This document shows, piece by piece, positions 27,479 to 53,188 of a DNA stretch of 64,000 nt; position 1 is the stretch's first letter, and each line of letters opens with the position of its first letter. Source of the stretch: Holothuria leucospilota. Its lineage: Eukaryota. A program made the translations under genes and the position numbers. The DNA lies in assembly GCA_029531755.1 (NCBI GenBank), contig CM055976.1, positions 6,848,493 through 6,912,492 on the forward strand, in the 5' to 3' direction. The notes below the pieces were generated by a model. That model saw only the letters and a list, made by a program, of their open reading frames with translations, had not been told where the DNA came from and searched no databases.

Positions 27479-27604
27479 AATTTGCCCTCTGCTGATCATG
27501 AAATAATGGATTATGCAGAAGAAGTTATCAGACACTTTGATGGGGAGGATTCTACTTCATCAGAAAGTGACTCTTCCTCAAGTGTGTGTTGTTATTCTGA
27601 TAAA
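27479..27604 (+). CDS. Candidate acidic, Ser-rich exon (NLPSADHEIMDYAEEVIRHFDGEDSTSSESDSSSSVCCYSDK).
   Basis: Acceptor gtatttttccAG (27476-78) and donor GATAAA|GTGAGT (27605). Phase 0 to phase 0. Confidence 0.4.
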
Positions 27605-28504
27605 GTGAGTGAACTCTTGAGCCATAGGTCATGTCTGAAGGTTCAAAAGACTGGAATATACAAGGTCTGTAAATATTGATCGTATCATTAAGATATTACA
27701 TGACACAGGAATCAAGCCTTTGAAACATTATTAGTTGTCACTAACCAGAAGTCTCATTATTTCCTAACTTTTATGTGTCTTCCTGTCTTATTACAAACAA
27801 AAGGGAAGTTACGAGTAACTGTGCATTGCATTTTAAAATTAATTTAGAAGAATTAACAAAGCTGTTCAAAATTAATTTAAGAGAAATAAAACCCAAGTTT
27901 TGAGTTAAACATGTGATAGTACCCAGATATCATCGAGTTAAGTCCATTTCATGAGTTCTGACTTCGCATTTCAGATAACTTGCAATCACTGTTTCCCCAA
28001 CTTTGGTATACTTTCATTTTCAAATGTCCTTTCAACTGGATGTTGAAGGGCAAAACAAAGCAAAACCTTTCCCCATGAAGGGGCCCCACTCCCCAAAAGA
28101 GCTTTGTCTTCAGAAGGGACACCATAATGCATGCAACTTTGTTAGTTCTTTTGATAATTATCCCTGACTAAAAGCAGCTTTACTCAAGTGTCACATGACC
28201 AGACTTGCATAATTGTCTGTCTACAAAGAGCTGTAATGAGACTGCAATGACTTAGACTGGACTGATCAACCTCTCAACCTTCAAACCAGGTCTGTCACGC
28301 GTAAATCTGTTCTGACTGAACAGAATTGATACTATAAAAGACCTTAGCCAAAGGGATGAGAAACCCATCATAATTTGTGTCCACAAAGAACTATGATGAA
28401 AATGTACACATAATGTTAGATGAGCATTTTATTTCTCTGGCACTGCAAGGCTAAAGCTGCCAGTTGCCTATAATTTATTACAGTGTAATCAAACCAATAG
28501 GATG

Positions 28505-29060
28505 TATATTTATTAGCTCAACCAGTTGAGCTATTGCCATGGCAGTGTATCTGTCTGTCTGTCTGTAGGTCAAAGGTCATTTGGGATCATGAGAGGTCAA
28601 AGAGTGATATCATGCAAAAGCCTTCAACTCCTGGTACTTACATCTCAATCTTTTCAAATGTAATGGGAGTGTTCAGTAAATGATGGATCTTCAAATTTTC
28701 TACTTTTGAAATAGATTAAAGGTCATTTGGGGGTCAAAGAAAGGTCAAACAAAAGGTCAAACAGTGTAATCCTGCAAAAACCTTCGTCTCCTAGACATTG
28801 TGTCTGAATTTTAGTAGATTTTGTAAGAGTGTTTAGTAGATAATAGTCATCAAAGTTGTACTTTTGAAGTTGGTCAAAGGTCATTTGGGTTCAAAGAGAG
28901 GTCAACAGTGAAATCACTCAAAAACTTTCACCCCCTAAGGGGTTGTATCCAAATTTTATCAAAGTTGGCCAAAGTGCTTAGTAGATGACAGGTCATCAAA
29001 TTTTTGAAGTTCAAAGGTCATGTGGGGTCATAAAATGGTTGAACAATGGAATCATGCAAT
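28505..29060 (+). mobile_element. Family 2 composite element. It has a hairpin head (TTATTAGCTCAACCAGTTGAGCTATTGCCATGGCA), a (GTCT)n microsatellite and about 3.5 units of a ~150-155-bp satellite (GGTCAAAGGTCATTTGGG...AGCCTTCAACTCC...).
   Basis: Perfect palindrome AGCTCAAC-c-AGTTGAGCT at 28514-28530, then (gtct)4, then tandem units. A second copy with the same head lies at 47535. Confidence 0.75.
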
Positions 29061-32000: not shown

Positions 32001-33961
32001 TCTTAAAAGGCCAGGAGCTTCCGGGGGCACTGCCCCCTGACCCCGCCAGGGCATTGCCTGTGGACCTGACCAGGGGCCCTAAGGCAGGCCCCTGGACCCC
32101 ACCCGTAAGAGTTCGCACTTCGCGCTCAGACTGACGCCTTGGGCGTCAGTATGCTACGTACCCAAAAGTTCAGTGATTTTTTTTGTATGTCAGGCTCATC
32201 CCTGAACATCACAGATGAGAAGAGAAATTTTCAGTTTTGGTGAAGATCAAAGTTCACTTTAGGTCACCAAAGGTCATGCAGTTATGAAAATTTTGTAGAC
32301 AGCTTGTAAATGGGATAGGTCAAGAATGGGTTACCACATCTTAGAGTTGGCATGTGTACGTTCCATGCTGAGCACAAAGGCTGGTGGAGGTCATTTGAAT
32401 TCAAAGGAGGCTAACTATGAAAAAATTAAAGGATCATGACATCACAAGAAGGGAAATTTTGATCTTTCTTATCCTTGGTAGGTAGGTACATGGTATAGTA
32501 GATTTTAATGGTTGCAATGCATAATGGGAACTGGGAGTATAAACAACAGGCGCTATATGCTGAATGGAGTACTAGTCACACTACAGGGCTGAAATTTAGC
32601 ACTCGTCCGATCGTCCGTGACGGGTAAAACTTGCATCGGACAACCACTTTCTGGCTTTGAACTTGTCCGATGGACGAGTAGATTTTATTTGTAACTGAAT
32701 AGTTCCCTACATCAGAAGGAAAGTATGTCATAAAAATCCCCTTAAGAAGTGGCATTGAGACAATGGTATTGACTACCATTCATCATTGAACCATGCCAAT
32801 AAATATGGAAAAATGCAGAATTTAAAGTAAATGTTTGTTTTCTATGGCAGAGACAGGAACAGAATTGTTCATCTCTTGTTCGTCACTTTCATTCAGACAA
32901 CCAAAAACTATTTCTCGGACAACCTAAATTTAGCTTCAGGTTGTCCGATGGGCAACCTGAAAATTTCCTTAAAAATCAGGCCTGCACTACTGTATTGTTT
33001 TAGTCCTAGTTAGTTTAGTTAGTTTAGTTCTTGGTTCCTGCTCCTTTTGTATGCATGATGTAATCATTAAGTCTGCTATTGAGTAGAAGAATTCTCACTT
33101 TGGTGGATTTTAAAGGTCATTTAAGGTCACCAGAGATCAAACTGGAAATTTTGTGAATATGTTATCATAAGAAGGGTAACCATGAGGATGCTCTTACTTT
33201 TAGCATGTTGATAAGTCATATTTTGAGTACAAGAGGGTAATATTGATTTAGCTAGGTCAAAGGTCATTTGCATTCCATTATGGTGAAACTGAATACTTGG
33301 AAAACAACATCTCCAAAAATGAAAGATTGACAAATCCCTAACTTACAATGAATAGGCTCATGTTGATTTTAAGAAACATTTTGTTAATACGTAAGGTCTA
33401 AGGTCATGAGAAATTATCAGGGGTGAAACTGTAAACTTGTAAACACAAAATGTCATCAATGGACACTTTGATGGATCTCATATTTGGCAGGTGGTTCCAA
33501 ACTTAGTGTGATGGAGGTCAAAGGGCTTATGAGTCCACAAGGTCAAACTTGATCCACATGAAAACATAATTTTCCCAGAAGGGGATGAACCCATAACATT
33601 TTGAAACCACATCATTTCTTCTCTGCAAAAAATCAAGGAGAAGAAGTTCTGATTTTGGTTTCAATTAAATAGTCTCATTTATGTTCATGAGAGTGATGCC
33701 AGTGGTAGCAATATTGAAGAAGGCAGTCACAGTAATATGGTAAGAAAAGCTGATACATTGCGGAGACACAAAAACATCAGTATCTAAAGCTGTGTTTCAA
33801 AACAGTAAAAAGAGTATCAAAGGCTATGCAACATTAAAACAGTAACAGAAGTATGAAGGGTGTGAAAAACTGAGACAGTTTTATGAAACTTCATGAAATG
33901 TGATGATCAATAAGATTATTAGATGTCAGAGTTACATTAGTATATTTTCTTTCTACTGTAG

Positions 33962-34055
33962 TTGGGCGGGAAACTCAAGGAAGTGGAAACTAGTGATGAT
34001 GAGGAAGAAGATACCATGTCATTTGATCTGGGTCTGGCTGAAGAACTATATGATG
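33962..34055 (+). CDS. Candidate exon encoding the acidic module, from the degenerate zeroth copy of the 4-kb unit (LGGKLKEVETSDDEEEDTMSFDLGLAEELYDg).
   Basis: Acceptor ttctactgtAG (33959-61) and donor TGATG|GTAATT (34056). Phase 0 to phase 1, matching the phase-1 start of the SSELEE exons downstream. Confidence 0.25.
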
Positions 34056-35509
34056 GTAATTCATTAAAATATGTGGTAGTGTTGTCAAAATAGCTTACCG
34101 AACAGATTAAATCCAAATGCAGTTTAAAACCGGAACTGCATTTGCTTGCAAATACGCAAAATTGTAGTGCATGGGGGAGTTTAGGCAAGTCCATGCAGTT
34201 TGAATTAAGGCAGTTTTGATGTGGATTTGGTATGGCATTTATTTAGTCCTGAGTTCACTGACACCAAATATTTTCACTACCTTCAGAAAGGTTTGCAAAA
34301 ATCTTTGTTTTTGAAAGGCTTTAGTTCATATTCAACCAAACCATTGACCTGCATAGTCACATTGTACTTGTCTTGCGATCAGTTCTGTGTAACTACATGT
34401 ACACATTGTGGCAACTATATTCATCATATATGGCACTTGTACAGTTCAGTCCAGATTGCTGTTGTGTTATGTACAGCCCTCTAGCTCCTAACTCTGTTCA
34501 TATTCAACCAAAGCATTGACCTGCATAGTCACATTGTCATTCTGTAGGCACTCAAGTCATGTTGTGATCAACTCTGTGTGACTACATACACATTGTGGCC
34601 ACTATATTCATCATACGGCACTTGTACAGTTCCATTCAGATTGCTTTTGTGTTATGTACAGCTCTCTGTCCTCACCATTTAACTAAAATGTGAGAGGAAT
34701 GCAGCACAACTCTCTCAGTCCAGTGCAATGAAGCCAATTGGCATTCAAGCAGTACATGGTATCTGTCTTGTTGCATGCCAACTAAGAAGCAGGGATTGCT
34801 GTAATTGAAATATACTCCAGGCTTTATACCTCCGTGGTAAAAGGCCGAATCACATTTCATCGGGTTTTCTAAGAATTTATCCACAGAGCCCTTTCGTATA
34901 GTTAACTTGTTAACCTTTCTTGTAGTTAGGGTATTTGCTTTTGTTACATGGGTTTTCATTTAATGATGACCACAGATTGACTTACTGCTGTTGTTAGAAG
35001 GTCAAGCATGGATATTTGTACGAACTAACTTAGGTACGAGCAGCATGGAGCTAGGAAGGCGGTTATAAGCCATACAAGGCTTAACAAAGGAATTCAGAAG
35101 TTGGCCAGTAATGCCAATTACACACTACAGTAATTACCTTATGCATAATCTGTCATTTGTAATTGTGATGCTAGTAACAAACAGGATATTTTAAGACAGG
35201 AATGATGGATACTTCCGTTGTGATGTTGGTGGAGGTCAAGGTCATTTGAGTCACTTTGGGGGAACTACAAAACCCTTGTAAACTGCTTGTAAATATGATA
35301 TCTTAAGAAGAGTAACATGAAGAGATCTTGCTTATAGCATATGGATGCCCTATCTTGAGAAGAATGATATTGCTTTCTCTGGAGGTGGAATTTCATACTA
35401 TCACCAAGGGTCAATTTGAGAAAACCTCGTAAACATGATATCTCAAGAAGGGTAACGGTCAGGGATCTCTCGTGTAACAAGTATCTGCTCTACATCGAGT
35501 TCAAGAGAG

Positions 35510-37770
35510 CTGTTTTTGGTTTCGATGAAAGAGAAACCTGTGCAGTCATGATGGCGTATGTGTGTATGTATGTGTGTGTGTTTGGGTGTGTGGGTGTGTA
35601 TGTGTGTGTGTGTTTGTGACGCTTAGCTTGTGTGCACGATATCTCAAGAAGAGAAACTCCGACAGTTTTCTAACTTGGTACATAAATGCCCCATATTACA
35701 AGAAAGAACCCTATCGTTTTTGGTGGGGGTCAAAGGTCATCTGGGGTCACCGGGGGTCAAAACCTGAAAACCTTGTGTGCACGATATCTCAAGTTAGGAA
35801 GCTTGGATGAATTTCATACTTAGTGTGTAGATGTGTTATGGTAAGAGGAAGAACCCTATTGTTTTTGGTAGAGGTCAAAGGTCATCTGGGGTCACTGGGG
35901 GTAAAACCCTGAAAACCTTGTGTGCACGATATCTCAAGGTAGGAAGCTTGGATGAATTTCATACGTAGTGTGTAGATGTGTTATGGTAAGAGGAAGAACC
36001 TTATTGTTTTTGGTGGAGGTCAAAGGTCATCTGGGGTCACTGGGGGTCAAAACCTGAAAACCTTGTGTGCACGATATCTCAAGTTAGGAAGCTTGGATGA
36101 ATTTCATACTTAGTGTGTAGATGTGTTATGATAAGAGGAAGAATCCTATCTTTTTTGGTGGAGGTCAAAGGTCATCTGGGGTCACCGGGGGTCAAAACCT
36201 GAAAACCTTGTGTGCACGATATCTCAAGGTAGGAAGCTTGGATGAATTTCATACTTAGTGTGTAGATGTGTTATGTTAAGAGGAAGAACCCTATTATTTT
36301 TGGTGGAGTTCAAAGGTCATTTGGGGTCACTGGGGGTCAAACTCTGAAAACCTTGTGTGCACGATATCTCAAGGTAGGAAGCTTGGATAAATTTCATACT
36401 TAGTATGTAGATGCATTATGATAAGAGGAAGAACCCTATTTTTTTTTGGTGGCGGTCAAAGGTCATGTGGGGTCACCGGAGGTCAAACTCTGAAACCTTG
36501 TTAACACAATATCTCAAGAAAGGAAGCGTGGATAAATTTCATACTTAGTATGTAGATGCGTTATGGTAAGCGGAAGAGCCCTATTATTTTTGGTGGAGTT
36601 CAAAGGTCATTTGGGGTCACTGGGGGTCAAACTCTGAAAACCATGTTAACACAATATCTCAAGGTAGGAAGCTTGGATAAATTTCATACTTAGTATGTAG
36701 ATGCGTTATGATAAGAGGAAGAACCCTATTTTTTTTTTGGTGGCGGTCAAAGGTCATGTGGGGTCACCGGAGGTCAAACTCTGAAACCTTGTTAACACAA
36801 TATCTCAAGGTAGGAAGCTTGGATAAATTTCATACGTAGTATGTAGATGCGTTATGGTAAGCAGAAGAGCCCTATTGTTTTGGGTGGACATCAAAGGTCA
36901 TCTGGGGTCACCAGGGGTCGAATGCTGAAAACCTTGTTAACACAATATCTCAAGGTAGGAAGCTTCGATGAATTTCATACTTAGTGTGTAGATGTGTTAT
37001 GGTAAGAGGAAGAACCCTATTGTTTTGGGTGGAGGTCAAAGGTCATCTGGGGTCGCCAGGGGTCGAATGCTGAAAACCTTGTTAACACGATATCTCAAGT
37101 TAGGAAGCTCGGATAAATTTCATACTTAGTGTGTAGATGTGTTATGGTAAGAGGAAGAACCCAATCATTTTTGGTGGCGGTCAAAGGTCATCTGGGGTCA
37201 CCGGAGGTCAAACTCTGAAAACCATGTTGACACAATATCTCAAGATAGGAAGCTTGGATAGATTTCATAGGTATTATGTGGATGTGTTATGGTGGGAAGA
37301 TGAATGCTATCATGTTTGGTGGAGGTCAAAGGTCATGTAGGGTCACCGGGGGTCAAACACTGAAAATGTTTTTAACATGATATCTCAAAATGGGAAGCTC
37401 GAATAAATTTCATGCGTAGTATGTACATGCATTATGGTAAGAGGAAGAACCCTATCGTTTTTGATGGAGGTCAAAGGTCATCTGGGGTCAAAAAGCAAAA
37501 TTTTAAGAATTTCCAAGATCGTCTCATGAGTTCACCAGAAGGCAAAAAGCAAATTTTCCCAAGAATTCCCAAGATCATCATCTTGAGTCATCAGATGTCA
37601 AAATGCAAAATTTCCCAGGAATTCCGAAGATCAAATATGAACCTAAAATTATTTTTCCAACATGTTAAGATAGCACTTGACCAGTGACTGAAAGACATGG
37701 GACATCATGGCATTATTTGGAATAGAACATATATCATCAAAACCTCAATGCATTTTTGCATTCTGGTTGA
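35510..37770 (+). mobile_element. Family 1 satellite-carrying element, copy B. It is the least diverged copy, with about 13 units of 145 bp. Its (TG)n-rich head lies at 35555-35625. It is inserted into, and replaces part of, the 4-kb duplicated unit.
   Basis: Unit period measured as 145 bp (ggtcaaaggtcat at 35728, 35873, 36018...). Tail subrepeats lie at 37480-37630, and the terminus at 37640-37770 matches 4900-5040 and 52760-52890. Confidence 0.85.
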
Positions 37771-38773
37771 AATTAATAAAGGAACATATTAAAGATGCTG
37801 TGAGGGTAGAGAGGTGTTTTGAACATAGAATCATGAATGTGCACCTTGCATGTCTCTTGTTGAGATCATCTGTGTGGCATTAAATTGGAATTTTGTGGAG
37901 ATGTATTGGCTTGGTCAGCAAATCAGCAAAAGTGTCCATAGGGTTAAGTGCTGAGAGGTTTCAACTGATACAGTAATTCATTGGTGCCATGAAGGAATTT
38001 ATAGTTCAGATCTTTGTGAAGGGGTAAAGTGCCAGTCAGTAAGTGTGAACTACCCCTTTACAGTCTGTGGAAAAGTAGCTGAAGACTGGGGCTACATTCT
38101 CTTACAGTTGGAGGGCATTTTAAACCCCTGGTTTAGCATCTAGAGTTTTAGTGTAGATACCTGCCACATCTTGACTCTGAAAGATTCAATTCTGCCAGTG
38201 AAAATATTTTGAGCCTACAATTACAATTAATGGGGAGCATTGGACAAAAATGTCCACTTAGTATAGATCTGTCCTATATCATTTGGTTGTGAAGTGCATT
38301 TTTAGATGAATGTAAGGTTGATAGTGTCATTTATTAAATCAACAATAGAACATGAAGTAAATTAAAGCACTGACCACCAACTATTATGAAAGTCATTAAA
38401 GTATGGAATCCACAGTGTAAAGCAGGATTGGGCACTTAAGGACCTGAAAGATGCACTTGGGGTCATCAATGTAAGTTGTGTTAACTACTTAATTATGTGC
38501 TGGTATGTTACAGTAAATATGATTTTATGCAGAAGTGTAGAATCTCACCACTTTCTGCACATTTTTGGTAAATGACTGTGTAGGTAGTACCATCACTAGT
38601 GTAGTACTGCACTCCACAGTATGGAGAATTGCATTATGTGTTGTATTGCATAAACCAGGTGCAGAAGTAGTTGGCTTTAACTTACCTTGGCAGGTTCTAT
38701 TATAAAAACACACCCTGTGAGTTAAATCATTACATACTAATGAATGAATAGTTTCATTGCTGGTTGTTTTCAG

Positions 38774-38832
38774 ATATTCTTTATAGTGCAGCAGTACTAC
38801 GCACAGATTCTTTTTCTTCAGAACTCGAAGAG
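38774..38832 (+). CDS. Candidate 59-bp exon ((D)ILYSAAVLRTDSFSSELEE) in copy 1 of the 4-kb tandem unit.
   Basis: Acceptor ggttgttttcAG (38771-73) and consensus donor GAAGAG|GTAAGG (38833). Phase 1 to phase 0. It is duplicated with intact splice sites at 42882 and 47022. Confidence 0.25.
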
Positions 38833-39476
38833 GTAAGGGTTTTTAAGGTTTTAATTCTCACAAGTTATTAGTCCAACCAGACTTGAAAATACAGACAGGG
38901 GATCACATAACCAAAAATTGATACAACTGTTTGGACAAATTTAGGCCTACAAGTATGGCTACTGATGTTGGCATAAATGTGATGATGAAAGTGCATTATT
39001 TCAGACAAAATACACCCAGAGTATAAAAGAGATGTGAAAAGTTTTCATACCAATTGTTGATTTTTACCAAGCCTTGCATATTTTCAAAAGTTTCCCAAGT
39101 TTCATGTGTCAACTGTTGCATATTTGTGTATGATGGATTCCTTGAGTAAGTCCAAACTTAACACAAAAGACATATACCAGCAGACCAGCAGCCATATTGG
39201 TGGACGCGATGTTGCAGGAGGCAGTCACAGTAATATAGTAAGAAAGCTGATACATTGTGGAGACACAAAAATATCAGTATCTAGAGCTGTGTTTCATATG
39301 AAAACAGTTGAAACAGTGAAAACAGTATCTAGGGCTATGCAACATTAAAACAGTAACAGCAGTATGAAGGGTGTGAAAAACTGAAACAGTTTAGATGAAA
39401 GCTTCATAAAAAATGATGATCAGTGAGGTTGTTAGATGTCAAAGTTACATTAGTATTTTTTTTCCATCTACTGTAG

Positions 39477-39573
39477 TTGGGCACAAACCTCAAGGAAGTG
39501 GACACTAGTGATGATGAGAAAGAATATACCATGTCATTTGATCTGGGTCCATCTTAAGAAGTTCCACCTGCTG
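39477..39573 (+). pseudogene. Copy of the LKEVETSDDE-module exon carrying an in-frame TAA (LGTNLKEVDTSDDEKEYTMSFDLGPS*). It is probably a dead or skipped exon copy.
   Basis: It has the same splice-site architecture as 43551-43647 and 33962-34055. An in-frame stop lies at ~39555-39557. Confidence 0.3.
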
Positions 39574-42500
39574 GTAATTCATTATAATTTGTGACAGTGT
39601 TGTCAAAAATACCTTACTGAACAGAAGATAAAATCCAAATCGAATTAAAAACTACTCCATGCATAATCTGTGCATTTGTGTTTGTGATGCTAGTTGCAAA
39701 GAGGATATCTTAGGACAGGAATGATGGATACTCACATATTGTTGTTGGTGGAGGTCAGGGTCATTTGTAGGGTCATTTGAGGTCACTAGGGGAAACTACA
39801 GAATCCTTGTAAACTGCTTGTAAACGTGATATCTTAAGAAGAGTAACATGAACTTCAAGGGATCTTGTATGTGACATGTGGATGCCCTATCTTGAAAAGA
39901 AGAATGCTATTAAGTAAGGTTTCATATAGTGTCACCATGGGTCAAATTGAGAAAAGCTCATAAACATGATATATCAAGAAGGGTAACTGTCAGGTATCGC
40001 TCATGTAACAAGTATCTGCTCAAAATTGAGTTCAAGAAGGCTGTTTTTATTAGTGAAATTCAAAGGTTATGTTAGGCCACCAGATATTAAACTGTGAAAA
40101 TCTGATATACAAAAATGTCTCAAGAAGGGAAGCTGTGATGATTCTCATACTTTTTTTATTTGTTTTATCACATTCTCGAGAAGTACAGTAAGATAAAAAT
40201 ATTTACATTATGCATTACATGAATGTATACTTAGCAAGAAGAAGCCAAAGCTTATAGTGAGTAGAAGAAACATTTTGATTTTGGTTGAGGTCAGAGGTCA
40301 TTTTGGATCAAGCGAGATCAATCTGATAGTCTTGTATGTTTAATATGCCTTTTGTATTATTAATGGTACATGTCAGGGTCTTCTAGTCTGCTATCACCTG
40401 GCAATGCTGGGCAGACTGAAAGAATTTGGCTTTTGCTACTTTCTTTCAGCGAGAAATGATGGAATGGAAATCAGGAAGATTGCCTCTTATGTATATATCG
40501 CCTCTCATCTATTCATTGTCATGGTACCGAGAGCAGAAGATGTATGGGTTTTCATACAATGCTTGATTTGTGAATTATGTTTCAATTTCCTCAGGAGAGG
40601 CTTTGACAAGTGAATGTACAGGAAATAGATTTTTTGAACTGAACAGTATTGATAAGCAATATCAATATTCATGACTTACAGTGCAGACTGCAAAGTTCAC
40701 TGTACAGGGAATAATGTACAGTAGTGTTCAAGATTTGCATAGCAAGTTTGAGGTTTCTGGGCTTCTCTTTCACAAAATCATTTAAAACCCTGTTGTTGTG
40801 TGTACATGTTCTACACAATTTTGCAATTGTGTAGCAATTCGCCCATCCTGTGTAGCAAAATGCGATGCGATACGGGAGAAATTATTCCCTGGTGTACCAT
40901 CAGTTGGGAGCTTTTTTACATTCAAATGGAAGCTAGGAGTAACTTTTTTTCTTACTTTAAGTTTCTAGAATAATCTTTTTACTCCAAGTTTGAGATATTT
41001 GTAGTTAATGTAGGATACTATTTTCTTGAAGGACTATTGCTTTACCCAGTGAATGATTTCAAAAACCTTGATTTTAGCAAGAAGATTGTTTTTGCTAATA
41101 CAAAATACCGCAGCACGTCTCTGTACTTGGGACAGCAAAAGGACAATCCTTCCTGGCAAATATTGTAATCCTGTAATGTCAAACTGGCTTATTCAGTTAT
41201 AGTTACCTAAGATAAATTGACAGAATATCTTATGTGTTTTAGCTCAAGAAACTTAAAGGCATTGTCTGGTGGCATTTTGTAGGGGTCTTATATAAAAGTT
41301 ACTACATGTCATCCAAACCCCATACCAAAACTCCAATCCTAACTCAAGATATCCCTTCCCAAAGATTAGTTACTTTTGACAAGAAACACCTCCAGATTTC
41401 CTCTAGGTCACAGAAGGTGAAGCCAAGTGGGCAAATTGTCTCAGGTCCTTTTGTTATTCTTTGTAATTTTATACCTTGTTTGTCCTTGAAATTTGATACT
41501 GTTGGAATGTTTAGATGCTCTTCCGTGTAGATATAGTGTAAAACTGCTCCATACCTATATGGAACAGCAAATAAAGTTATGAAATAATCAATTTAATGAT
41601 ATCAACATTAAAAAGAAATACAAAAGCTACATCTAATCAATTTGCCCAGATGACATCACAGATTTCCCATAATGTACTGGCAGAACCTGAAAATGTAGCA
41701 TCTCTTCAAAAATTCATATCTTCCAGATGCAAGATGGTATTGAGATGGGGTTTTCACTGCCTAACATAGAAAAGTTTTCTGCTTTTTTTGAAAACATCAA
41801 ATTTGGTCACCAGAACATGCTTTTAACTGTTTTGTAAAGGTGAAATAAGAAGATAGGTGTTGAAACCTGAATGAATGGCTTTTAAGAAGTTGAAATCATT
41901 TTTGAAATTAATAAAGGAACATATTAAAGATGTTGTGAGGGTAGAGAGGTGTTTTGAACATAGAATCATGAATGTGCACCATGCATGTCTCTTGTAGAGA
42001 TCATCTGTGTGGCATTAAATTGGAATTTTTTGAAGATGTATTTGCTTGGTCAGCAAATCAGCAAAAGTGTCCATAGGGTTAAGTGCTGAGAGGTTTCAAC
42101 TGATACAGTAATTCATTGGTGCCATGAAGGAATTTATAGTTCAGATCTTTGTGAAGGGGTAAAGTGCCAGTCAGTAAGTGTGAACTACCCCTTTACAGTC
42201 TGTGGAAAAGTAGCTGAAGACTGGGGCTACATTCTCTTACAGTTGGAGGGCATTTTAAACCCCTGGTTTAGCATCTAGAGTTTTAGTGTAGATACCTGCC
42301 ACATCTTGACTCTGAAAGATTCAATTCTGCCAGTGAAAATATTTTGAGCCTACAATTACAATTAATGGGGAGCATTGGACAAAAATGTCCACTTAGTATA
42401 GATCTGTCCTATATCATTTGGTTGTGAAGTGCATTTTTAGATGAATGTAAAGTTGATAGTGACATTTATTAAATCAACTATAGCACATGAAGTAAATTAA

Positions 42501-42881
42501 AGCTCTGACCAACAACTATTATGCAAGTCATTAAAGTATACAATCCACAGTGTAAAGCAGGATTGGGCACCTAAGGACCTGAAAGATACATTTGGGGGTC
42601 AACAATGTAAGTTGTGTTATCTATTATGTACTGATATGTTACAGTAAATACCATTTTATGCAGAAGTGTAGAATCTCACCATTTTCTGGTCATTTTTGGT
42701 AAATAGCTGTGTAGTACCATGACTAGTGTAGTACTGCACTCCACAGTATGAAGAGCATAAACTAGGTGCAGAAATAGTTGGCTTTAACTTACCTTGGCAG
42801 GTTCTAATATAAAAACACACCCTGTGAGTAAAATCATTACATACTAATGAATGAATAGTTGTCATTGCTGGTTCTTTTCAG

Positions 42882-42940
42882 ATATTCTTTATAGTGCAGC
42901 AGTACTACGCACAGATTCTTTTTCTTCAGAACTCGAAGAG
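42882..42940 (+). CDS. Candidate exon ((D)ILYSAAVLRTDSFSSELEE), copy 2 of the SSELEE exon.
   Basis: Identical to 38774-38832. Acceptor cAG at 42879-81 and donor GTAAGG at 42941. Confidence 0.25.
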
Positions 42941-43550
42941 GTAAGGGTTTTTAAGGTTTTAATTCTCACAAGTTATTAGTCCAACCAGACTTGAAAGTAT
43001 AGGCAGGGGATCACAAAACCAAAAATTGATTCAACTGTTTGGACACATTTAGGCCTGCCAGTATGGCTGTCAGAACTACTGATGTTTGCATAAATGTGGT
43101 GATGAAACTGCGTTATTTCAGACAAAATACAGACAGAGTATAAAAGAGATATGAAAATTTTTTGTACCAATTGCTGATTTTTTCCAAGCCTTGTATTTTT
43201 TCCAAAGTTTCATGTGTCAACTGTTACATATTTGTGTATGATTGACTACTTGAGTAAGTCCAAACTTAACACAAACAGCATACACTAGCAGACCAGCAGC
43301 CATAGTGGTGGTAGCGATGTTGAAGGAGACAGTCACAGTAATATGGTAAGAAAAGCTGATACATTGTGTAGACACAACAACATCAGTATCTAAAGCTGTG
43401 TTTCATATAAAAACAGTTGAAACAGTAAAAACAGTATCTAAGGGTGTGAAAAACTGAGACAGTTTAGATGAAAGCTTCATGAAAAATGATGATCAATGAG
43501 GTTTATTAGATGACAAAGTTACATTAGTATTTTTTTTCCTTCTACTGTAG

Positions 43551-43647
43551 TTGGGCACAGAACTCAAGGAAGTGGAAACTAGTGATGATGAGAAAGAATA
43601 TGCCATGTCATATGATCTGCCTCCGTCTGAAGAAGTTCCAACTGCTG
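43551..43647 (+). CDS. Candidate exon encoding the acidic module, copy 2 (LGTELKEVETSDDEKEYAMSYDLPPSEEVPTAg). The frame is intact.
   Basis: Acceptor tctactgtAG (43548-50) and donor CTGCTG|GTAATT (43648). Phase 0 to phase 1. Confidence 0.25.
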
Positions 43648-46600
43648 GTAATTCGTAATAATTTGTGACAGTGTTATCAAAAATACCTTACTAAACAGAA
43701 GATAAAATCCAAATCCAATTAAAAACTACTCCATGCATAATCTGTGCATTTGTGTTTGTGATGCTAGTTGCAAACAGGATATTTTAAGACAGGAATGATG
43801 GATACTTCCATACTGATGTTGGTGGAGGTCAGGGTCATTTGAGGTCACTAGGGGAAACTACAAAATCCTTGTAAACTGCTTGTAAACGTGATATCTTAAG
43901 ACGAGTAACAAGAACTTCAAGGAATCTTGTATGTGACATGTGGATGCCCCATCTTGAGAAGAAGAATGCTATTAAGTAAGGTTTCATATAGTGTCACCAT
44001 GGGTCAAATTGAGAAAAGCTCATAAACATGATATATCAAGAAGGGTAACTGTCAGGTATCGCTCATGTAACAAGTATCTGCTCAAAATTGAGTTCAAGAA
44101 GGCTGTTTTTATTAGTGAAATTCAAAGGTTATGTTAGGCCACCAGATATTAAACTGTGAAAATCTGATATACAAAAATGTCTCAAGAAGGGAAGCTGTGA
44201 TGATTCTCATACTTCTTTTATTTGCTTTATCACATTCTTGAGAAGTACAATAAGGTAAAAATATTTACATTATGCGTTACATGAATGTATACTTAGCAAG
44301 TAGGAGCCAAAGCTTATAGTGAGTAGAAGAAACGTTTTGATTTTGGTTAAGGTCAGAGGTCATTTTGGATCGAGAGATGTCAATCTGATAGTCTTGTATG
44401 TTTAATATGCCTTTTGTATTATTAATATTACATGTAAGGGTCTTCGATTCTGCTATCGCCTGGCAATGCTGGGCAGAGTGAAAGAATTTGCCTTGTGCTA
44501 TTTTCTTTCAGCAAGAAATCATGGAATGGAAATCAGGAAGATTGCCTCTCATGTATATGTTACCTCTTATCTATTCATTGTCATGGTACCGAGAGCAGAA
44601 GATGTATGGTTTTGCATGCAATGCTTGATTTGTGAATTATGTTTCAATTTCATCAGGAGAGGCTTTGACAAGTGAATGTACAGGAAATAGAATTTTTGAA
44701 CTGAACAGTATTGATAAGCAATATGAATATTCATGACTTACAGTGCAGACCGCAAAGTTCACTGTACAGGGAATAATGTACAGTAGTGTTCAAGATTTGC
44801 ATAGCAAGTTTGAGGTTTCTGGGCTTCTCTTTCACAAAATCATTTAAAACCCTGTTGTTGTGTGTACATGTTCTACACAATTTTGCAATTGTGTAGCAAT
44901 TCGCCCATCCTGTGTAGCAAAATGCGATGCGATACGGGAGAAATTATTCCCTGGTGTACCATCAGTTGGGAGCTTTTTTACATTCAAATGGAAGCTAGGA
45001 GTAACTTTTTTTCTTACTTTAAGTTTCTAGAATAATCTTTTTACTCCAAGTTTGAGATATTTGTAGTTAATGTAGGATACTATTTTCTTGAAGGACTATT
45101 GCTTTACCCAGTGAATGATTTCAGAAACCTTGATTTTAGCAAGAAGATTGTTTTTGCTAATACAAAATACTGCAGCACGTCTCTGTACTTGGGACAGCAA
45201 AAGGACAATCCTTCCTGGCAAATATTGTAATCCTGTAATGTCAAACTGGCGTATTCAGTTATAGTTACCTAAGATAAATTGACAGAATATCTTATGTATT
45301 TTAGCTCAAGAAACTTAAAGGCATTGTCTGGTGGCATTTTGTAGGGGTCTTATATAAAAGTTACTACATGTCATCCAAACCCCATACCAAAACTCCAATC
45401 CTAACTCAAGATATCCCTTCCCAAAGAATAGTTACTTTTGACAAGAAACACCTCCAGATTTCCTCTAGGTCACAGAACGTGAAGCCAAGTGGGCTAATTG
45501 TCTCAGGTCCTTTTGTTATTCTTTATAATTTTATACCTTGTTTGTCCTTGAAATTTGATACTGTTGGAATGTTTAGATGCTCTTCCTTGTAGATATAGTG
45601 TAAAACTGCTCCGTACCAATATGGAACAGCAAATAAAGTTATGAAATAATCAATTTAATGATATCAACATTATAAAGAAATACAAAAGCTACATCTAATC
45701 AATTTGCCCAGATGACATCACAGATTTCCCATAATGTACTGGCAGAACCTGAAAATGTAGCATCTCTTCAAAAATTCATATCTTCCAGATGCAAGATGGT
45801 ATTGAGATGGGGTTTTCACTGCCTAACATAGAAAAGTTTTCTGCTTTTTTTGAAAACATCAAATTTGGTCACCAGAACATGCTTTCAACTGTTTTGTAAA
45901 GGTGAAATAAGAAGATAGGTGTTGAAACCTGAATGAATGGCTTTTTAGAAGTTGAAATCATTTTTGAAATTAATAAAGGAACATGTTAAAAATGTTGTGA
46001 GGGTAGAGAGGTGTTTTGAACATAGAATCATGAATGTGCACCATGCATGTCTCTTGTAGAGATCATCTGTGTGGCATTAAATTGGAATTTTTTGGAGATG
46101 TATTGGCTTGGTCAGCAAAAGTGTCCATAGTGTTATGTGCTGAGAGGTTCCAACTGGTAATTCATTGGTGCCATGAAGGAATTTTGTAGTTCAGATCTTT
46201 GTTAAGGGGTAAAGTGCCATTCAGCTAGTGTGAACTACCTCTTTACAGTCTGTGAAAAAGTAGCTGAAGACTGGGGCTACATTCTCTTACAGTTGGAGGG
46301 GATTTTAAACACCTGGTTTAGCATCTAGAGTGTTAGTGTAGATACCTGCCACATCTTGACTTTGAAAGATTCAATTCTGCCAGTGAAAATATTTTGAGCC
46401 TACAGTTACAATTAAGGAGTATTGGACAAAAAATGTCCACTTAGTATAGATCTGTCCTATATCATTTGGTTGTGCAGTGCATTTTAGATGAATGTAAAGT
46501 TGATAGTGTCATTTATTAAATCAACTATAGAACATGAAGTAAATTACAGCACTGACCACCAACTATTATGCAAGTTCTTAAAGTATGGAATCCACATGCA

Positions 46601-47021
46601 GTGTAAAGTAGGATTGGGCACCTAAGGACCTGAAAGATATACACTTGGGGTCAACAATGTAAGTTTTGTTATCTACTTAATTCTGTGCTGGTATGTTACA
46701 GTAAATATGGTTTTATGCAGAAGTGTAGAATCTCTAGCCATGTGTTCAAAAAATAATAAATTGTTAGCTCACTAATTATCCTGCTCACCACTTTCCGGAC
46801 ATTTTTGGTAAATGACTGTGTAGGTAGTACCATCACTAGTGTAGTACTGCACTCCACAGTATGGAGAATTGCATTATGTGTTGTATTCAATGCATAAACT
46901 AGGTGCAGAAATAGTTGGCTTTAACTTACCTTGGCAGTGTTCTAATATAAAAACACCCCCTGTGAGTTAAATCATTACATACCGTAATGAATGAATAGTT
47001 TTCATTGCTGGTTATGTTCAG

Positions 47022-47080
47022 ATACTCTTTATGGAGCAGCAGTACCAGCCACAGCATCTTTTTCTTTGGAACTCGAAGAG
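47022..47080 (+). CDS. Candidate exon, diverged copy 3 of the SSELEE exon ((D)TLYGAAVPATASFSLELEE).
   Basis: Acceptor gttatgttcAG (47019-21) and donor GAAGAG|GTAAGT (47081). Splice sites and frame are conserved despite 12 substitutions. Confidence 0.2.
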
Positions 47081-47534
47081 GTAAGTGTTTTCAAGACTTT
47101 GCCACAAGTTATCAGTCTATAGCAGACTTGAAAATATAGACAGGGGATCACATAACCAAAAATTGATTCAACTCTTTGGACAAATTAAGGCTTACCAGTA
47201 TGGCTGCCTGAACTATTGTTGTTTGCATAAATGTGATGATGAAACTGCATTATTTCAGACAAAGTACAACCAGAGTATAAAAGAGATATGAAAAATTTTC
47301 ATATCAATTGCTGATTTTTACCAAGCCTTAATGTGTTTTTTCAAAAGTTTCCAAAGTTTCATGTGTCAACTGTTGCATATTTGTGTATGATGGACTACTT
47401 GAGTAAGGCCGTACTTTACACAAATGACATAGGCCAGCAGCCATATCGGCAGGCATAATTGTGCATGTACGCTGATGACACTCTACTGTAAATCATTTTG
47501 GTGCAGTGTGCTCTGTCAGTGTTTATCACAAGTG

Positions 47535-48870
47535 GTTGTTTATTATTAGCTCAACAAGTTGAGCTATTGTCATGGCAATGCGTCTGTCTGTCTGTCTGTC
47601 TGTCCGTCTGTCTGTCCGTCAACATTGGAAAAAAGGCTGCTGCCTGCAGGTGCTTTGACCGTTCCTTCTCAAAGTTGGTGTGGGTATAACACATATCAAG
47701 GGCTTGATAATTATGGTAACAGGAAGTAGGTCAAAGGTCATTGGGGGTCGTGAGAGGTCAAAGAGTGAAATCACGCAAAAGCCTTCAACTCCTTGTGGTT
47801 TTGTTGGAATCTTTTCAAATTTGACAGGAATATTCAGAAAATGATTGGTCATCAAAGTTGTTCTTTTGAAGTAGATCAAAGGTCATTTGGGGTCAAAGAG
47901 AGGTCAAGCAAAAGGAGGTCAAACAGTGTAATCACGCAAAAGCCTTCAACTCCTATGGGTTATGTCTGAATTTTATCAAATTTGGCAAGAGTGTTAAGAA
48001 GATAATGGGTCATCAATGTTCTACTTTTGAAGTAGGTCAAAGGTCATTTGGGGTCATGCAGGGGTCAAACAGTGAAACCACTCAAAAGCCTTCAACTCCT
48101 AGGGGTTTATATCCATATGTTATCATAATTGGTCAGGGTGTTTAGTAGATAACAGGTCATCAAAGTTGTACTTTTAAAGTTGGTCAAAGGTCATCTGGGG
48201 TCAAGCAGGGGTCAAACAGTGAAATCAATCAAAAGCCTTCAACTCCTAAGGGTTATATCCAAATCTTATCAAAGTTAGCCAGAGTGTTCAGTAGATGACA
48301 AGCTGTCAAAGTTGTACTTTTGAAGTAGGTCAAAGGTCATTTGGGGTCAAAGAAAGGTCAAAAAGTGAAATGTTGTAAATGTCTTCAATTCTTAAGGGTT
48401 ATATCCAAATCTTATCAACGTTAGCCAGAGGGTTCAATTGATGATAGGTCATCAGAGTTGTACTTATGAAGTAGGTCAAAGGTCATCTGGGGTCAGAGAG
48501 GTCAAACCGTGAAATCACTCAAAACCCTTCAGCCACTAGGGGTTATATCCAAACCTTATCAAAGTTGGCCAGAGTGTACAGTAGATGACAGGTCTTCAAA
48601 GTTGTACTTTTGAAGAAGGTCAAAGGTCATTTGGGGTCAAGGAGAGGTCAAACACTGGAATTGTGCAAATGCCTTCAGCTCCTAGGGGTTGTGTCTGACT
48701 TTTATCAAAGTTGACAAGAGTATGCAGTAGATGAATTGATGGGTCATCAGAGTTTTACTTTTGAAGAAGTTTAAAGTTGTTTGGGGTCAAAGAGCTAGGG
48801 CAAACAGTAGAATCAAGCAAAAGCCTTGAAATACTCATGGTTGTGTCGGAATCTTATCAAAGTTGGCCAG
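47535..48870 (+). mobile_element. Family 2 composite element, copy 2, with the same hairpin head, (GTCT/GTCC)n and about 8 satellite units of ~150 bp. It truncates copy 3 of the 4-kb tandem unit.
   Basis: Head ttattagctcaacaagttgagctattgtcatggcaatgcgtctgtctgtctgtc at 47547-47600. The satellite units recur about every 140-160 bp from 47736 to ~48860. Confidence 0.75.
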
Positions 48871-48904
48871 AGTGTGCAGTGGATGATGCATAGGTGTACT
48901 TTGT

Positions 48905-49290: not shown

Positions 49291-50944
49291 ATTTGGGGTC
49301 ACAAAACATCATATGGTGAAATGCATGCTAGTGCTTCTCCATAAGGGTTTATGTTTTGTATGATGTATACTATAGGAATCATTTTTTGACAGACCTGACG
49401 AATTGGGGTATAAGTAGCCTAATTTTTGTCAGCAGAATTACCTACAGTACTGTGCCCACAAACACTTAACAAAAAGTCGCAAGCCGGACAACTCTAGCAG
49501 ATATACCACTGCTGTGACCATTTACATCTATAGCACTGAAGTTCCTAGATCATGACAGTCTACGACTCCTTGATTTGGATCCCTAGTGAAACTATATAAC
49601 ATAAACTGTGTGAGAGAAATTTTAGTTGAGCTACAGCATCATTGATGCTCTTGTAGTATTTTGTTTCTTTGGTATTATCATTGTTCTAGTTCATACCAGG
49701 AGATGCAGTTTGAATGAAAGATTTGTTTGCAAATGTTTTGAAGCCTTATCAGATCTTTCTATGCATGTCTATGGTGTAGTAAAAAAACAATTATCTTCCA
49801 TTATCAGGATAAACAGATTTAGGAAAAAGAAAATGGGAAAAAATTTTTCTCCCTAGTGTACAGCAATTTCAATGCAGAAAGGGTATTGATGTATTCAAAG
49901 TGTCAAAAGTAAGGACTAAATTTGTTAAATGTTTGCTGTAAATAGGTACATGTATCCCAGAGTGGCATAAAATCATAAAATATGGATAAAAATGGGCTTT
50001 AGCATAAAAAAGTCACAAAATGATGGGAAAAAGGATGCAGTAACTACATGGAGATGTGCACTGAACTACATAGACATGTACATGGCATAGAGTGATTACT
50101 GTGGGTGGGGTGTGAAGGCTTTGGCCACACAATTTCACAACTATGGGCCATAAGTGTGCTGGACCACTTCTAACTTGGGGGTCTGCAGCACTTCTGCCTG
50201 AAATTTTAATGCATATTGCCCAAAAGTGGCATATATTTCACAACAAAATGACAAATTTTCTGCTCAAATGGGGCACTCTCCCATCTCATACTCCTATGGC
50301 TATGGTAATCTCATACTCTTATGGCTATGGTAGATCAATTTCTGTTTTGCATAGATGTTTCCATGTTCCCCACACTTGGCAAAGTTATGATTCTTGCTAC
50401 TGTTATACTGTATTTTGAATATAAAAATGTATATTTTTTTTTTATTTGTATATAAAAATCTTTTTTAGAAATATGAACACATGAAGGATTAGTGTCCCAT
50501 GGAGGTTTGATCCATTTGGGATGCAGGACAGTTGACCAAAATTTGGGATGATTCCCATCAAAAAGAGGATGCCTGGTCATCCTGTCAATGATTGTTATCT
50601 CAATATTTAGCACTCTGCAGCTGTATTTTACAGCAGCCTAGGGCATAGGTCAATAATTTTGTGCTGAGTAAACTTGTAATGATGACACTATGGCAAGAAA
50701 TATATCTACAGTATTTTTTAGTGAGAGTAGACTGAGATAATCATTGCATAGTATTTGCTAGACCCATCCTAGTTTCCCAGTAAAAAAAACTACAGCCACA
50801 AAGTTTTAAGAAAAATCTATTCCAGCTATGCAGTGAGCATAAATGAATATTAAAATGCCCCTGACTTTACAGAAAGTGTAATGTTTGTGGTTCATATTAA
50901 AATGTTAGAAAGATAATCTCTGTGTGGTATCTTATAAAATTTGT

Positions 50945-52890
50945 TTTTGGTTTCGATGATAAGAGAAACCTGTGCATTCATGATGACATGTGTATGTATG
51001 TGTGTATATCCACGTCTGTAATGGGCGCCTATTGGGGACACACACCGGTCCTTGAGACGTGAACTGGGGACATGATGAAAATCGGGGATATCCCCGATTT
51101 TAGTATCACTTCAAATGTGCCTTTGGGAGTCAAAGTAGTACGCCCTCTGCTTATCATACAGTTTCAAGCAAGTTCCACAGTTCACCTGCTCACCACACGT
51201 TCATGTGTAAAATCTGTGTAATTTTAGCTTTGATTAAATGCCATACACTCTCTTGTGAAATTATCCCCGGTTTCTGTGTGTGGAAAACACGCCCCTTTTT
51301 CACACACGACCATGCGCTGAGCAGGTGAACTGGGGATATTTCAATAGAGAGTAATTATCCCCGGTTCCCTAACTTTCGCAGTGTGTGAAATATGCTCCCC
51401 ATTTCCATAGCTGGCAGTCCAAGTAGATAGAAACATAAGTTGAGTTATTTCAACACGGGATATCTACAGCTATGACGTAGCCGTTGTAATTCCAATGACG
51501 TTTTGGCTCTAGCGCCCCCAGAAAGTGTATCCCCACTTCACGTCTCAAAATCCAGTATCCCCAGTAGGCGCCCTGAACGGGTAAGTGTGTTTTTGTGTGT
51601 GTATGTGCTTGTGATTGTGACACTTATCTCATTAACACGATATCTCATGAAGGGAAACTGACAGTTCTCAAACTTGGTGCATAGATGCCCCATGGTGAGA
51701 GGAAGAACTCTATTGTTTTTGGTGGAGGTCAAAGGTCATCTGGGGTCACCGGGGTCAAAACCAAAAACATTAACACAATGTCTCAAGATTGAAAGCTTGG
51801 ATAAATTGATGCCTTAAGGTGAGAGGAAGCACCCTATTTTTTGGTGGGGGTCAAAGGTCATGTGGCATCACCAGTGTCAAAACCTGAAAATGTTAACATG
51901 ATATCTCAAGATATGAAGCTTGGATAAATTTCATACGTAGTATGTAGGTGCCTTATGGTGAGAGGAAGAATGCTATTGTTTTTGGTGGGGTCAAAGGTCA
52001 CCTGAGGTCACCGGGGGTCAAACTCTGAAAACCTTGTGTACACGATATCTCCAGATGGGAAGCTTGGATAAATTTCATACTTAGTGTGTAGATACCATAT
52101 GGTGAGAGGAAGAACCCTATTGTTTTTAATGGGGGTTAAGGGTCACCTAAAGTCACCAGGGTCAAATTCTGAAAACCTTTTTAACATGATATCTGAAAGT
52201 AGGAAGCTTGGATGAATTTTTTACTTAGTATGTGGATGTGTTATGGTGAGACAAAGGATCCTATTTTTATAGGGCAGGTCAAAGGTCATTTTGGGTCACC
52301 AGGGGTGGTCAAACCCTGACAACCTTGTTAAGATGATAGCTCAAGGTAGGAAGCTTGGATAATTTCATACTTAGTATGTGGATGCCTTATGGTAAGAGAA
52401 AAAACCGTATTGTTTTGGTAGGGGGTTAAAGTTCATCCGGGGTCCCCAGGGGTCAAACTCTAAAAACCTTTTTAACACGATATCTCAAGTTAGAAAGCTT
52501 GAATAAATTTCATACTTAATATTATGTAGATGCCTTACGGTAAGAGGAAGAACCCTATTGTTTTATAGTGGAGGTCAGAGGTCATCTTTATCTGGGTCAC
52601 CAGAGGTTAAAAAATAAAATTTCCCAGGATTCCCAAGATCGTCATTTGGGGTAACCACAGGTCAAAGTAAAATTCCCCTAGAATTCCCAAGATCATCATC
52701 TGGGGTTTTCAGAGGTCAAAATGCAAAATTTCCAAAGAATTCCCAAGATCAGATATGAACACAAAACTATTTTTCCAACATGTTAAGATAGCATTTGAAC
52801 AGTGACTGAAAGAAATGGGACAACATGGCATTATTTGGAATAAAACAAAAACCGTCAAAACCTCAGTGCATTTTTGCATTCTGGTTGTAA
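50945..52890 (+). mobile_element. Family 1 satellite-carrying element, copy C, with about 7 units. Its head is interrupted by a nested TIR MITE at 51023-51573.
   Basis: The head ggtttcgatgataagagaaacctgtgcattcatgatg lies at 50950. It resumes after the MITE with gtgtgtttttgtgtgtgtatgtgcttgtgattgtgacacttatctcattaacacgatatctc, which matches the heads of copies A and B. The tail is at 52600-52890. Confidence 0.8.
51023..51573. mobile_element. Non-autonomous TIR element (MITE, ~550 bp) nested inside the head of family 1 copy C.
   Basis: Terminal inverted repeats GGGCGCCTATTGGGGACA...CCTTGAGACGTGAACTGGGGA at the left end and their reverse complement TCCCCACTTCACGTCTCAAA...TCCCCAGTAGGCGCCC at the right end. 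Insertion into a known repeat gives clean empty-site evidence, because copies A and B lack it. Confidence 0.75.
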
Positions 52891-53125: not shown

Positions 53126-53188
53126 GAGAGCTTTTCACCACAGACACTTGAATCTGAAAGTTTTATAGCAGTGGAAATGGGTGATAAA
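53126..53188 (+). CDS. Candidate small exon (ESFSPQTLESESFIAVEMGDK).
   Basis: Acceptor tttatcctAG (53123-25) and donor GATAAA|GTAAGT (53189). 63 bp, phase 0. Confidence 0.25.

Follow-up and report, generated by a model that had tools for sequence, protein, structure and literature searches.

In the genome of Holothuria leucospilota (Eukaryota), a block of near-identical DNA lies downstream of exons for a vWA domain, and it raises the question of whether exons of the surrounding gene have been multiplied there or only the DNA between them. We analysed the 64,000-nucleotide stretch that contains this block (GenBank assembly GCA_029531755.1, contig CM055976.1, positions 6,848,493 to 6,912,492 of the forward strand); this whole stretch is called the window, and coordinates count from its first letter. 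An initial annotation, made from the letters alone, had proposed a tandem segmental duplication that reiterates a pair of short exons. Our results showed that the tandem segmental duplication is real, with refined coordinates, and that the gene around it is PARP4-like (poly(ADP-ribose) polymerase 4, the vault PARP). We consider it probable that the block is a young, two-step intragenic tandem triplication in this gene and that it carries a probable exon cassette.

The block consists of three tandem units

The duplication was mapped by gapped BLASTN self-alignment of the region, and pairwise identities were calculated by global alignment with gap columns excluded. The self-alignment, which the initial annotation had suggested as a check, bore out a duplication downstream of the vWA domain: positions 37767-43291 aligned with 41902-47440 at 91.2% identity over 5647 columns, with an offset of 4135. 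The degenerate zeroth copy described earlier was also recovered by BLASTN as two pieces that match the later units. The first (33702-34130) was 80-82% identical to 39200-39652 and 43308-43726, and the second (35141-35517) was 79-83% identical to 39659-40048 and 43733-44110. Taken together as A0, the two pieces reached 84-86% to the later copies A1 or A2 by global alignment without gap columns.

The copies outlined before were real, and their framing changed. The third copy halts at about 47440, at the point where the sequence that starts at 33702, 39200 and 43308 would begin again, and so three complete units, U1 to U3, are the simplest description (Table 1). The units are adjacent and in the same orientation, with offsets of 4108-4135 bp. 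Each has an A part that holds a 97-nt segment and a B part that holds a 59-nt segment, and a further part, segment C (1853 bp), is found in U2 and U3 only. In U1, the A part comprises 33702-34130 and 35141-35517, and the B part (37767-39199) is 95.1% identical to that of U2 and 92.6% to that of U3.

Table 1 Features of the block and of the rest of the window
Feature	Position	Strand	Basis or remark
PARP4-like PARP/VIT/vWA exons	6219-23854	+	tblastn back-mapping of database matches, and Pfam
Candidate acidic linker exon, DKEARKYEDGMHDDEPSSSDEESIE, phase 0-to-0	24708-24782	+	codon score in top 0.2% of null
Candidate acidic, Ser-rich linker exon, NLPSADHEIMDYAEEVIRHFDGEDSTSSESDSSSSVCCYSDK, phase 0-to-0	27479-27604	+	exon scan, codon score
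E0, candidate exon, SDASGSNIEEGSHSNM, phase 0-to-0	33692-33739	+	codon log-likelihood 3.8; 4% of null segments as high
Unit 1 (U1), oldest copy, broken by 1-kb insert and HINE transposon	33702-39199	+
97-nt class, U1 copy, 94 nt, LGGKLKEVETSDDEEEDTMSFDLGLAEELYD, phase 0-to-1	33962-34055	+	exon scan; codon score in top 0.9% of null
U1-only 1-kb sequence	34131-35140	.	BLASTN: no counterpart in U2 or U3
HINE-type element 1 (non-autonomous Helentron), inside U1	35518-37766	+	paralogues at 2975-5035 and 50942-52890
59-nt segment, U1 copy, (D)ILYSAAVLRTDSFSSELEE, phase 1-to-0	38774-38832	+	identical to U2 copy
E0' fragment at U1/U2 junction, about 37 nt of E0 3' end plus donor joined to U1 end	39184-39237	+
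Unit 2 (U2)	39200-43307	+	90.9% to U3 over 4203 columns
97-nt class, U2 copy, in-frame TAA at 39555-39557, LGTNLKEVDTSDDEKEYTMSFDLGPS*EVPPA	39477-39573	+
Segment C copy 1, 1853 bp	40049-41901	.	97.2% to copy 2, no indel
59-nt segment, U2 copy	42882-42940	+	exon scan
E0' fragment at U2/U3 junction, TSSHSGGSDVEGDSHSNM	43292-43345	+	breakpoint as at 39184-39237
Unit 3 (U3)	43308-47440	+	homology ends at about 47440-47443
97-nt class, U3 copy, LGTELKEVETSDDEKEYAMSYDLPPSEEVPTA	43551-43647	+	exon scan; codon score in top 0.4% of null
Segment C copy 2	44111-45963	.
59-nt segment, U3 copy, (D)TLYGAAVPATASFSLELEE	47022-47080	+	10 substitutions; frame and splice signals kept
HINE-like element 2, (GTCT)n then 146-bp satellite; right end provisional	47534-48886	+	left end homologous to 28500-28566
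Candidate downstream exon, ESFSPQTLESESFIAVEMGDK, phase 0-to-0	53126-53188	+	exon scan, codon score
Candidate last coding exon	54829-55080	+	codon score 27.7-30; donor at 55065 or read-through to stop at 55078-55080

Divergence among the copies was graded. The younger parts are 94-97% identical (97.2% for C1-C2, without an indel, 95.1% for B1-B2 and 94.4% for A1-A2) and the older parts 84-93% (among them B1-B3 at 92.6% and B2-B3 at 91.3%). A three-way sliding comparison of the B parts gave a mosaic: B1 equals B2 over 300 bp, and elsewhere B1 is nearer to B3 in places and B2 nearer to B3 in others. This mosaic identity is the signature of gene conversion.

The two internal junctions, U1/U2 (39184-39200) and U2/U3 (43292-43308), have one common breakpoint, and both read ...CCATATTGG/TGGTAGC..., with variants (slash, breakpoint). 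The left flank and start of U1, the two inter-unit junctions, and the end of U3 and right flank were compared, and the parental sequences had no more than about 1 bp in common at the breakpoint; the inter-unit junctions were free of transposon sequence. The left breakpoint (33702) falls within the candidate exon E0, inside which the three-unit alignment starts. E0 lies in the context ttcatgag/AGTGAT...AATATG/gtaaga, and its last 37 nt are repeated together with the donor at 39200-39237 and 43308-43345. The resulting E0' fragments are open in frame, have a poor, purine-rich acceptor context and are regarded as donor-only relics.

The surrounding gene is PARP4-like

The window is eukaryotic in character (GC about 0.37, intron-bearing genes, zero N throughout), and one large gene is read on its + strand. 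Open segments from 14-23 kb were concatenated and used as the query, and the database matches were named poly(ADP-ribose) polymerase 4 by their sources. The best of them was 72% identical across the VIT domain; Solemya velum gave 69% and Crassostrea gigas 55%. In the concatenated exons, Pfam recognised VIT (9.8e-37), VWA_3 (6.2e-14), VWA (8e-10) and PARP (4.1e-6, 26.9 bits against a cut-off of 26.7), and PARP_reg (2.6e-4) stayed under its cut-off because the exons are incomplete. The VIT and vWA exons are collinear on the + strand at 13-23.8 kb and C-terminal to the catalytic domain. The combination of PARP, VIT and VWA is the architecture of PARP4, and the gene that the initial annotation knew by its vWA domain is therefore PARP4-like. 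Its first recognisable exon (49-228) is already within the regulatory domain, and the part further 5', where the N-terminal BRCT domain of a PARP4 would be encoded, falls before the first letter of the window.

Homology to PARP4 ends at 23.85 kb, and the duplication block lies 10-24 kb downstream of the last conserved exon. The last two exons with homology support (22607-22792 and 23717-23854) are each phase 0-to-0. GC skew remains above zero as far as about 55 kb, and its sign reverses at about 55-56 kb. The candidate last exon, rich in Lys, Arg, Ser and Glu (...KKKKKKKGKEDPL...RSRSRSRDRESE...) and phase 0-to-0 when read as 54829-55065, runs to a stop at 55078-55080, which is followed by AATAAA at 55586 and 55860. 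The skew, this terminal exon and the poly(A) signals fit a single + strand transcription unit that spans the block. If this exon is the terminus of PARP4, the protein would be one without a recognisable vault-binding domain.

The gene of the best database relative (P0007) is intronless and comes from a distant organism, and is therefore of no use for a comparison of the linker. As side observations, the PARP, VIT and vWA regions are intronless open reading frames (ORFs) at 10001-14445 of L002, a 1.2-Mb ENA contig from a distant organism, with an actin-domain ORF at most 3 kb downstream of them, and one database fragment (P0093) passes directly from PARP4-like into actin sequence.

Each unit carries a pair of exon-like segments

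In each unit, the 97-nt segment (phase 0-to-1) is followed by the 59-nt segment (phase 1-to-0). All six segments have an AG acceptor behind a pyrimidine tract and a GT donor, and five of the six are open. The splice context is ...ttttttccttctactgtag/TTGGGC...CTGCTG/gtaatt for the 97-nt class and ...ctggttcttttcag/ATATTC...GAAGAG/gtaagg for the 59-nt class. The phase-compatible, exon-like pair with AG/GT borders and an acidic, Ser/Thr-rich translation, as first proposed, was thus found in all six segments; the genomic order within the unit is the reverse of the one given then, in which the 59-nt segment came first. The U1 copy of the 97-nt class departs from the others by one in-frame 3-bp indel. 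The 59-nt copy at 47022 keeps its frame and splice sites as stated, and differs at 10 positions rather than the 12 counted earlier.

The pair adds up to 156 nt, or 52 codons. This is a multiple of three, and so one, two or three cassettes fit without a break in the frame. Spliced together, the two exons would encode a 52-residue acidic, Ser/Thr-rich module of a disordered linker after VIT-vWA. The in-frame TAA that had been noticed in the U2 copy of the 97-nt class is there, and if included it would be a premature stop. The accompanying proposal that this copy be skipped does not suffice by itself, because removal of this copy alone joins a 59-nt segment to a 59-nt segment (phase 0 to phase 1) and shifts the frame; the 156-nt pair must be skipped together. 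A productive mRNA would then drop one pair and hold at most two cassettes (104 residues). Since the 59-nt copies of U1 and U2 are identical, either skipped pair yields the same protein.

To judge the segments within the window, we scored codon usage by a log-likelihood whose training set was 742 codons from exons with homology support, contrasted with the remainder of the window. Compared with random open segments of equal length, the cassette segments ranked within the top 0.4-2.8%. We also scanned for exons: a candidate had to have an open frame, score positively for codon usage, follow an AG with a pyrimidine-rich tract before it and end at a reasonable GT donor. The scan recovered 11 of the 14 training exons and two PARP exons on which it had not been trained, and its clusters numbered 27 on the + strand and 3 on the - strand. 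In the interval from 33.6 to 47.5 kb, only the five stop-free cassette segments were flagged. The strong candidates from 22.6 to 55 kb are mutually phase-compatible: the conserved exons, those at 24708 and 27479, E0, the cassette, and those at 53126 and 54829. The candidate exons also share a composition, with 30% Asp+Glu, 5% Lys+Arg and 21% Ser+Thr over 186 residues and 11 S/T-x-x-D/E sites.

Substitutions between the copies were about two-fold more frequent in the cassette than in its flanks (35 of 250 sites versus 173 of 2391, pooled across three contrasts; Fisher p = 3e-4), and the difference persisted against flanks within 300 bp (p = 0.0025). About 30 of the 35 cassette changes are non-synonymous, with ratios of non-synonymous to synonymous change (pN/pS) of 1.35-4.0 between copies. 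Indels are common in the flanks, and the sole indel in the cassette is the 3-bp one. Untranslated DNA should diverge like its flanks; a cassette that changes faster, and mostly in ways that alter amino acids, suggests translated, diversifying segments. On this evidence the cassette segments are most likely true exons, and we rate it as likely that at least one unit is coding. Their splicing into the PARP4 mRNA, like any function of the module, is inferred, whereas the duplication with its structure and junctions, the identity of the gene, and the frames and splice signals are directly shown.

Searches outside the window

The module and its surroundings were next compared with sequence collections. 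The sole match of a HMMER search with the module and the neighbouring candidate exons, against 1.84 billion representatives, was a 60-residue ORF (P0097) on a 1-kb marine metagenome contig, and it covered the 23.7-kb exon only. Positions 219-408 of this contig (L001; ENA ERZ28654831, TARA_SAMEA6005720 scaffold_135364) are 82.6% identical in nucleotides to 23682-23871 of the window. The ORF is 79% identical in amino acids to the 23.7-kb exon, and the introns are unalignable. The contig is the only near relative found, and a related species therefore occurs in the TARA sample.

The downstream candidate exons, including that at 54.8 kb, had no homologue in the protein databases. Pfam matches reached no cut-off in ORFs downstream of the block, in segment C or in the repeat units, the 1-kb insert included. 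Rfam gave no match from 23 to 56 kb, and the well-conserved stretch of intron between E0 and the 97-nt segment is therefore not a known RNA.

An origin of the cassette from a VIT exon was considered and rejected. Segments 38774-38832 and 43551-43647, in the order 59-nt then 97-nt, show a weak collinear similarity to 14288-14428 and 15689-15740 (AAV..F / G.E.KE.ET..KEY / (D/N)LPPS.EV; Smith-Waterman score 43, shuffle p 0.003). The tblastn E value was 0.29 with this window alone as the database, the intron positions differ, and the similarity was judged to be probably a chance effect of composition.

Alternative explanations

Several results weigh against a spliced, coding cassette in the PARP4-like gene. 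The exon scan is home-made and was trained on only 742 codons, and on the + strand it gave a few probable false positives, such as one within a transposon at 51513. The 35 changes are a small number, and the pooling behind them is crude. Purifying selection on the copies was looked for and none was found, the cassette being less conserved than its flanks; one of the three 97-nt copies already bears a stop, and any individual copy may be an unused one in neutral decay. The module alone had no match in a word-indexed protein collection, the HMMER search returned none for the module, and a scan of metagenome contigs with back-translated peptides gave 163 pattern matches, of which 0 were confirmed. 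No transcript, expressed sequence tag (EST) or orthologous protein with the module was found in the collections searched. These external negatives count for little because the collections are without this species and its close relatives, and all PARP4 matches are fragments of fewer than 660 residues. The same results can be read to mean that the duplication is real and its exon-like segments are never spliced, being plain intronic or intergenic DNA with open AG...GT segments, which are individually common. We regard this as possible but unlikely. The scan is specific, for only the cassette passes in 14 kb and the whole antisense strand gives 1-3 clusters; moreover, the phases are continuous with six other candidate exons, the codon usage is like that of the gene's own exons, and the two-fold excess of mostly non-synonymous change over the flanks comes with zero frameshifting indels.

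It is also improbable, more so than the absence of splicing, that the cassette exons belong to a separate acidic gene on the + strand, downstream of PARP4 and ending at the 54.8-kb Lys/Arg/Ser-rich exon. The attachment of the cassette to the PARP4-like gene is less than certain: recognisable PARP4 homology extends no further than 23.85 kb, database searches gave no PARP4 homologue of the 54.8-kb exon, and Pfam found no MVP-interacting C-terminal domain in the ten longest ORFs on both strands at 49.6-63.3 kb. The last of these is uninformative, because this domain is poorly conserved and expected to be divided among small exons. On the other side stand a phase-0 chain unbroken from 22607-22792 and 23717-23854 via 24708 and 27479 to E0, a 24-33.7 kb interval with no candidate first exon or terminal signal seen, a GC skew uniformly positive across the region, and a PARP4 linker that is known not to be conserved. 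Heterozygosity is high in the genomes of marine invertebrates, and assemblies of this sort are known to contain false duplications. Haplotypes or mis-joined reads laid end to end could give tandem copies, and the 97.2% identity of C1 and C2 without indels would suit such an artefact. We nevertheless consider it very unlikely, since three units with a graded divergence of 84-97% go beyond what two haplotypes give. Differences between the units also include the 2.2-kb transposon, the 1-kb insert and segment C of 1.85 kb. The mosaic identity of the copies speaks for gene conversion, each of the two internal junctions occurs with a sequence of its own, and the window has no N or gap. Least credible of all is that satellite-carrying transposons mediated the duplication by recombination between copies. 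HINE-type elements do sit inside U1 and about 90 bp past U3, with more copies at 3-5 kb and 51-53 kb, and the initial annotation had placed them exactly at the boundaries, as mediators or limits of the rearrangement. But element 1 (35518-37766) interrupts a unit instead of bounding it, and element 2 belongs to a different family. The junctions at 39184-39200 and 43292-43308 are transposon-free, their microhomology amounts to only about 1 bp, and the left breakpoint falls in unique sequence, that of candidate exon E0. Neither element stands at a junction; transposon mediation is therefore unsupported, and the junction sequences contradict it.

Proposed history of the block

For the two-step triplication that we favour, the following order of events would account for the units. 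In the first step, about 2.3 kb, from within E0 to about 360 bp past the 59-nt segment, would have been doubled head-to-tail. The microhomology of about 1 bp at the junction would fit end-joining or a template switch during replication rather than recombination between repeats. In the second step, segment C would have entered the second unit, and unequal crossing-over between the two paralogous units would then have added the third; crossing-over is proposed because the same junction was inherited. Later gene conversion would have turned the copies into a mosaic. A HINE-type transposon would have entered U1 later, and another would have landed just downstream of the block.

Discussion

Tandem duplication of exons or exon blocks is an established route to repeated protein modules and to alternative cassettes, nebulin with its triplicated exon block being one example. 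Kondrashov and Koonin in 2001 and Letunic, Copley and Bork in 2002 reportedly described the phenomenon in general. The block analysed here is a fresh example of this known event and not a new kind. As in other cases, whole exons lie head-to-tail, their combined length is a multiple of three so that repeated modules or alternative cassettes are possible, and the copies are homogenised by unequal crossing-over and gene conversion. It differs in that there are three units only, one of them already disabled, and in that an exon is cut by one of the breakpoints, with a donor-only fragment remaining at each junction. Splicing of the copies, whether additive or mutually exclusive, is a prediction here.

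The ITIH-like (VIT-vWA) region and the MVP-interacting domain of vertebrate PARP4 are joined by a disordered stretch that exceeds 300 residues (PMC4038475; domain map in PMC10450202). This linker (human exon 30) is variable in sequence and length and has been under recurrent positive selection, with a human-rhesus dN/dS of 1.75 for the linker exon against 0.63 for the whole PARP4 gene (PMC4038475). The cassette has the same position, directly after VIT-vWA, and may belong to an orthologous linker. The vertebrate linker is predicted to be disordered and is unconserved in sequence and length, with dN/dS above 1, and pN/pS between the cassette copies is likewise above 1. The vertebrate linker is one large exon that changes by point substitutions and indels, whereas the PARP4-like linker here would comprise many small exons, mostly of symmetric phase, and would grow by cassette duplication. 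Further, selection is read here from 35 substitutions between paralogues and not from a series of orthologues, and the MVP-interacting domain was not found in this window.

We put forward only tentatively, as an unlikely but consequential reading of these sequences, that the cassette is translated, that its copies diverge under diversifying selection, and that the linker of an invertebrate PARP4 is remodelled by duplication and diversification of a small exon cassette. If so, the host-pathogen conflict proposed at the linker of vault PARP, from positive selection in mammals and birds, would extend to an invertebrate, and the locus would offer a natural series of linker variants with one, two or three cassettes. 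Should the cassettes be spliced in, the block would be a snapshot of the growth of a disordered linker, from microhomology duplication through unequal crossing-over and partial homogenisation by gene conversion to rapid amino-acid divergence and the early loss of a copy, in a region of PARP4 already known for unusually fast evolution in vertebrates. The growth of a disordered linker by such duplication is in itself nothing unusual. Otherwise, the block is an everyday piece of structure in an invertebrate genome rich in repeats. For annotation, gene models may wrongly take in the stop-bearing copy or collapse the repeats.

Transposons and other repeats in the window

HINEs, for example Cg_HINE of Crassostrea gigas, are non-autonomous Helentrons that bear satellite-like arrays in the genome of the oyster (PMC7492417). 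The features of element 1 were read from the ends of three paralogous copies and matched to that description, not to a consensus sequence, and element 1 is HINE-type by this match. It contains a 145-bp satellite (12.3 copies) and a 56-bp repeat (2.6 copies), and its ends read ..gctgttttt/GGTTTCGATGAAAGAGAAACC... and ...TCATCAAAACCTCAATGCATTTTTGCATTCTGG/ttgaaatt (slash, element border). There is a GGTTTC...GAAACC inverted pair at the 5' end, a (TG)n microsatellite, and a TCATCAAAACC repeat at the 3' end followed by the palindrome AATGCATTTTTGCATT. The element was inserted in an oligo-T run with no target-site duplication. The window elements thus resemble Cg_HINE, by described features, in the 5' subterminal repeat with a nearby complement (GGTTTC...GAAACC), the left microsatellite ((TG)n or (GTCT)n), the central array of about 145 bp, the 3' subterminal repeat before the palindrome, the oligo-T target and the lack of a target-site duplication; they are bystanders to the duplication. 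In all, introns of the PARP4-like gene hold three copies of one HINE family with satellites, which share their orientation, and two traces of another family, every one of them in + orientation.

The HINE in U1 and the unrelated segment C in U2 and U3 occupy the identical site, between gctgttttt and ttgaaattaat (left edges 35518, 40049 and 44111; right edges 37766, 41901 and 45963). Either segment C is another insertion that targets oligo-T runs, or it was lost upon arrival of the HINE. The U1-only 1-kb sequence holds a local tandem duplication of about 172 bp (34324-34482 and 34496-34667, 80% identity).

A 67-bp minisatellite at 24751-26389 and 26600-26865 (24.5 + 4 copies, 95% matches) derives from candidate exon 24708-24782, of which it has taken up the 3' end and the splice donor. 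The exon-derived part of its units carries stop codons. As a result of this array, 27 donor-like AG/GTAAGG sites follow the exon at 67-bp spacing, forming a decoy donor array in a PARP4 intron.

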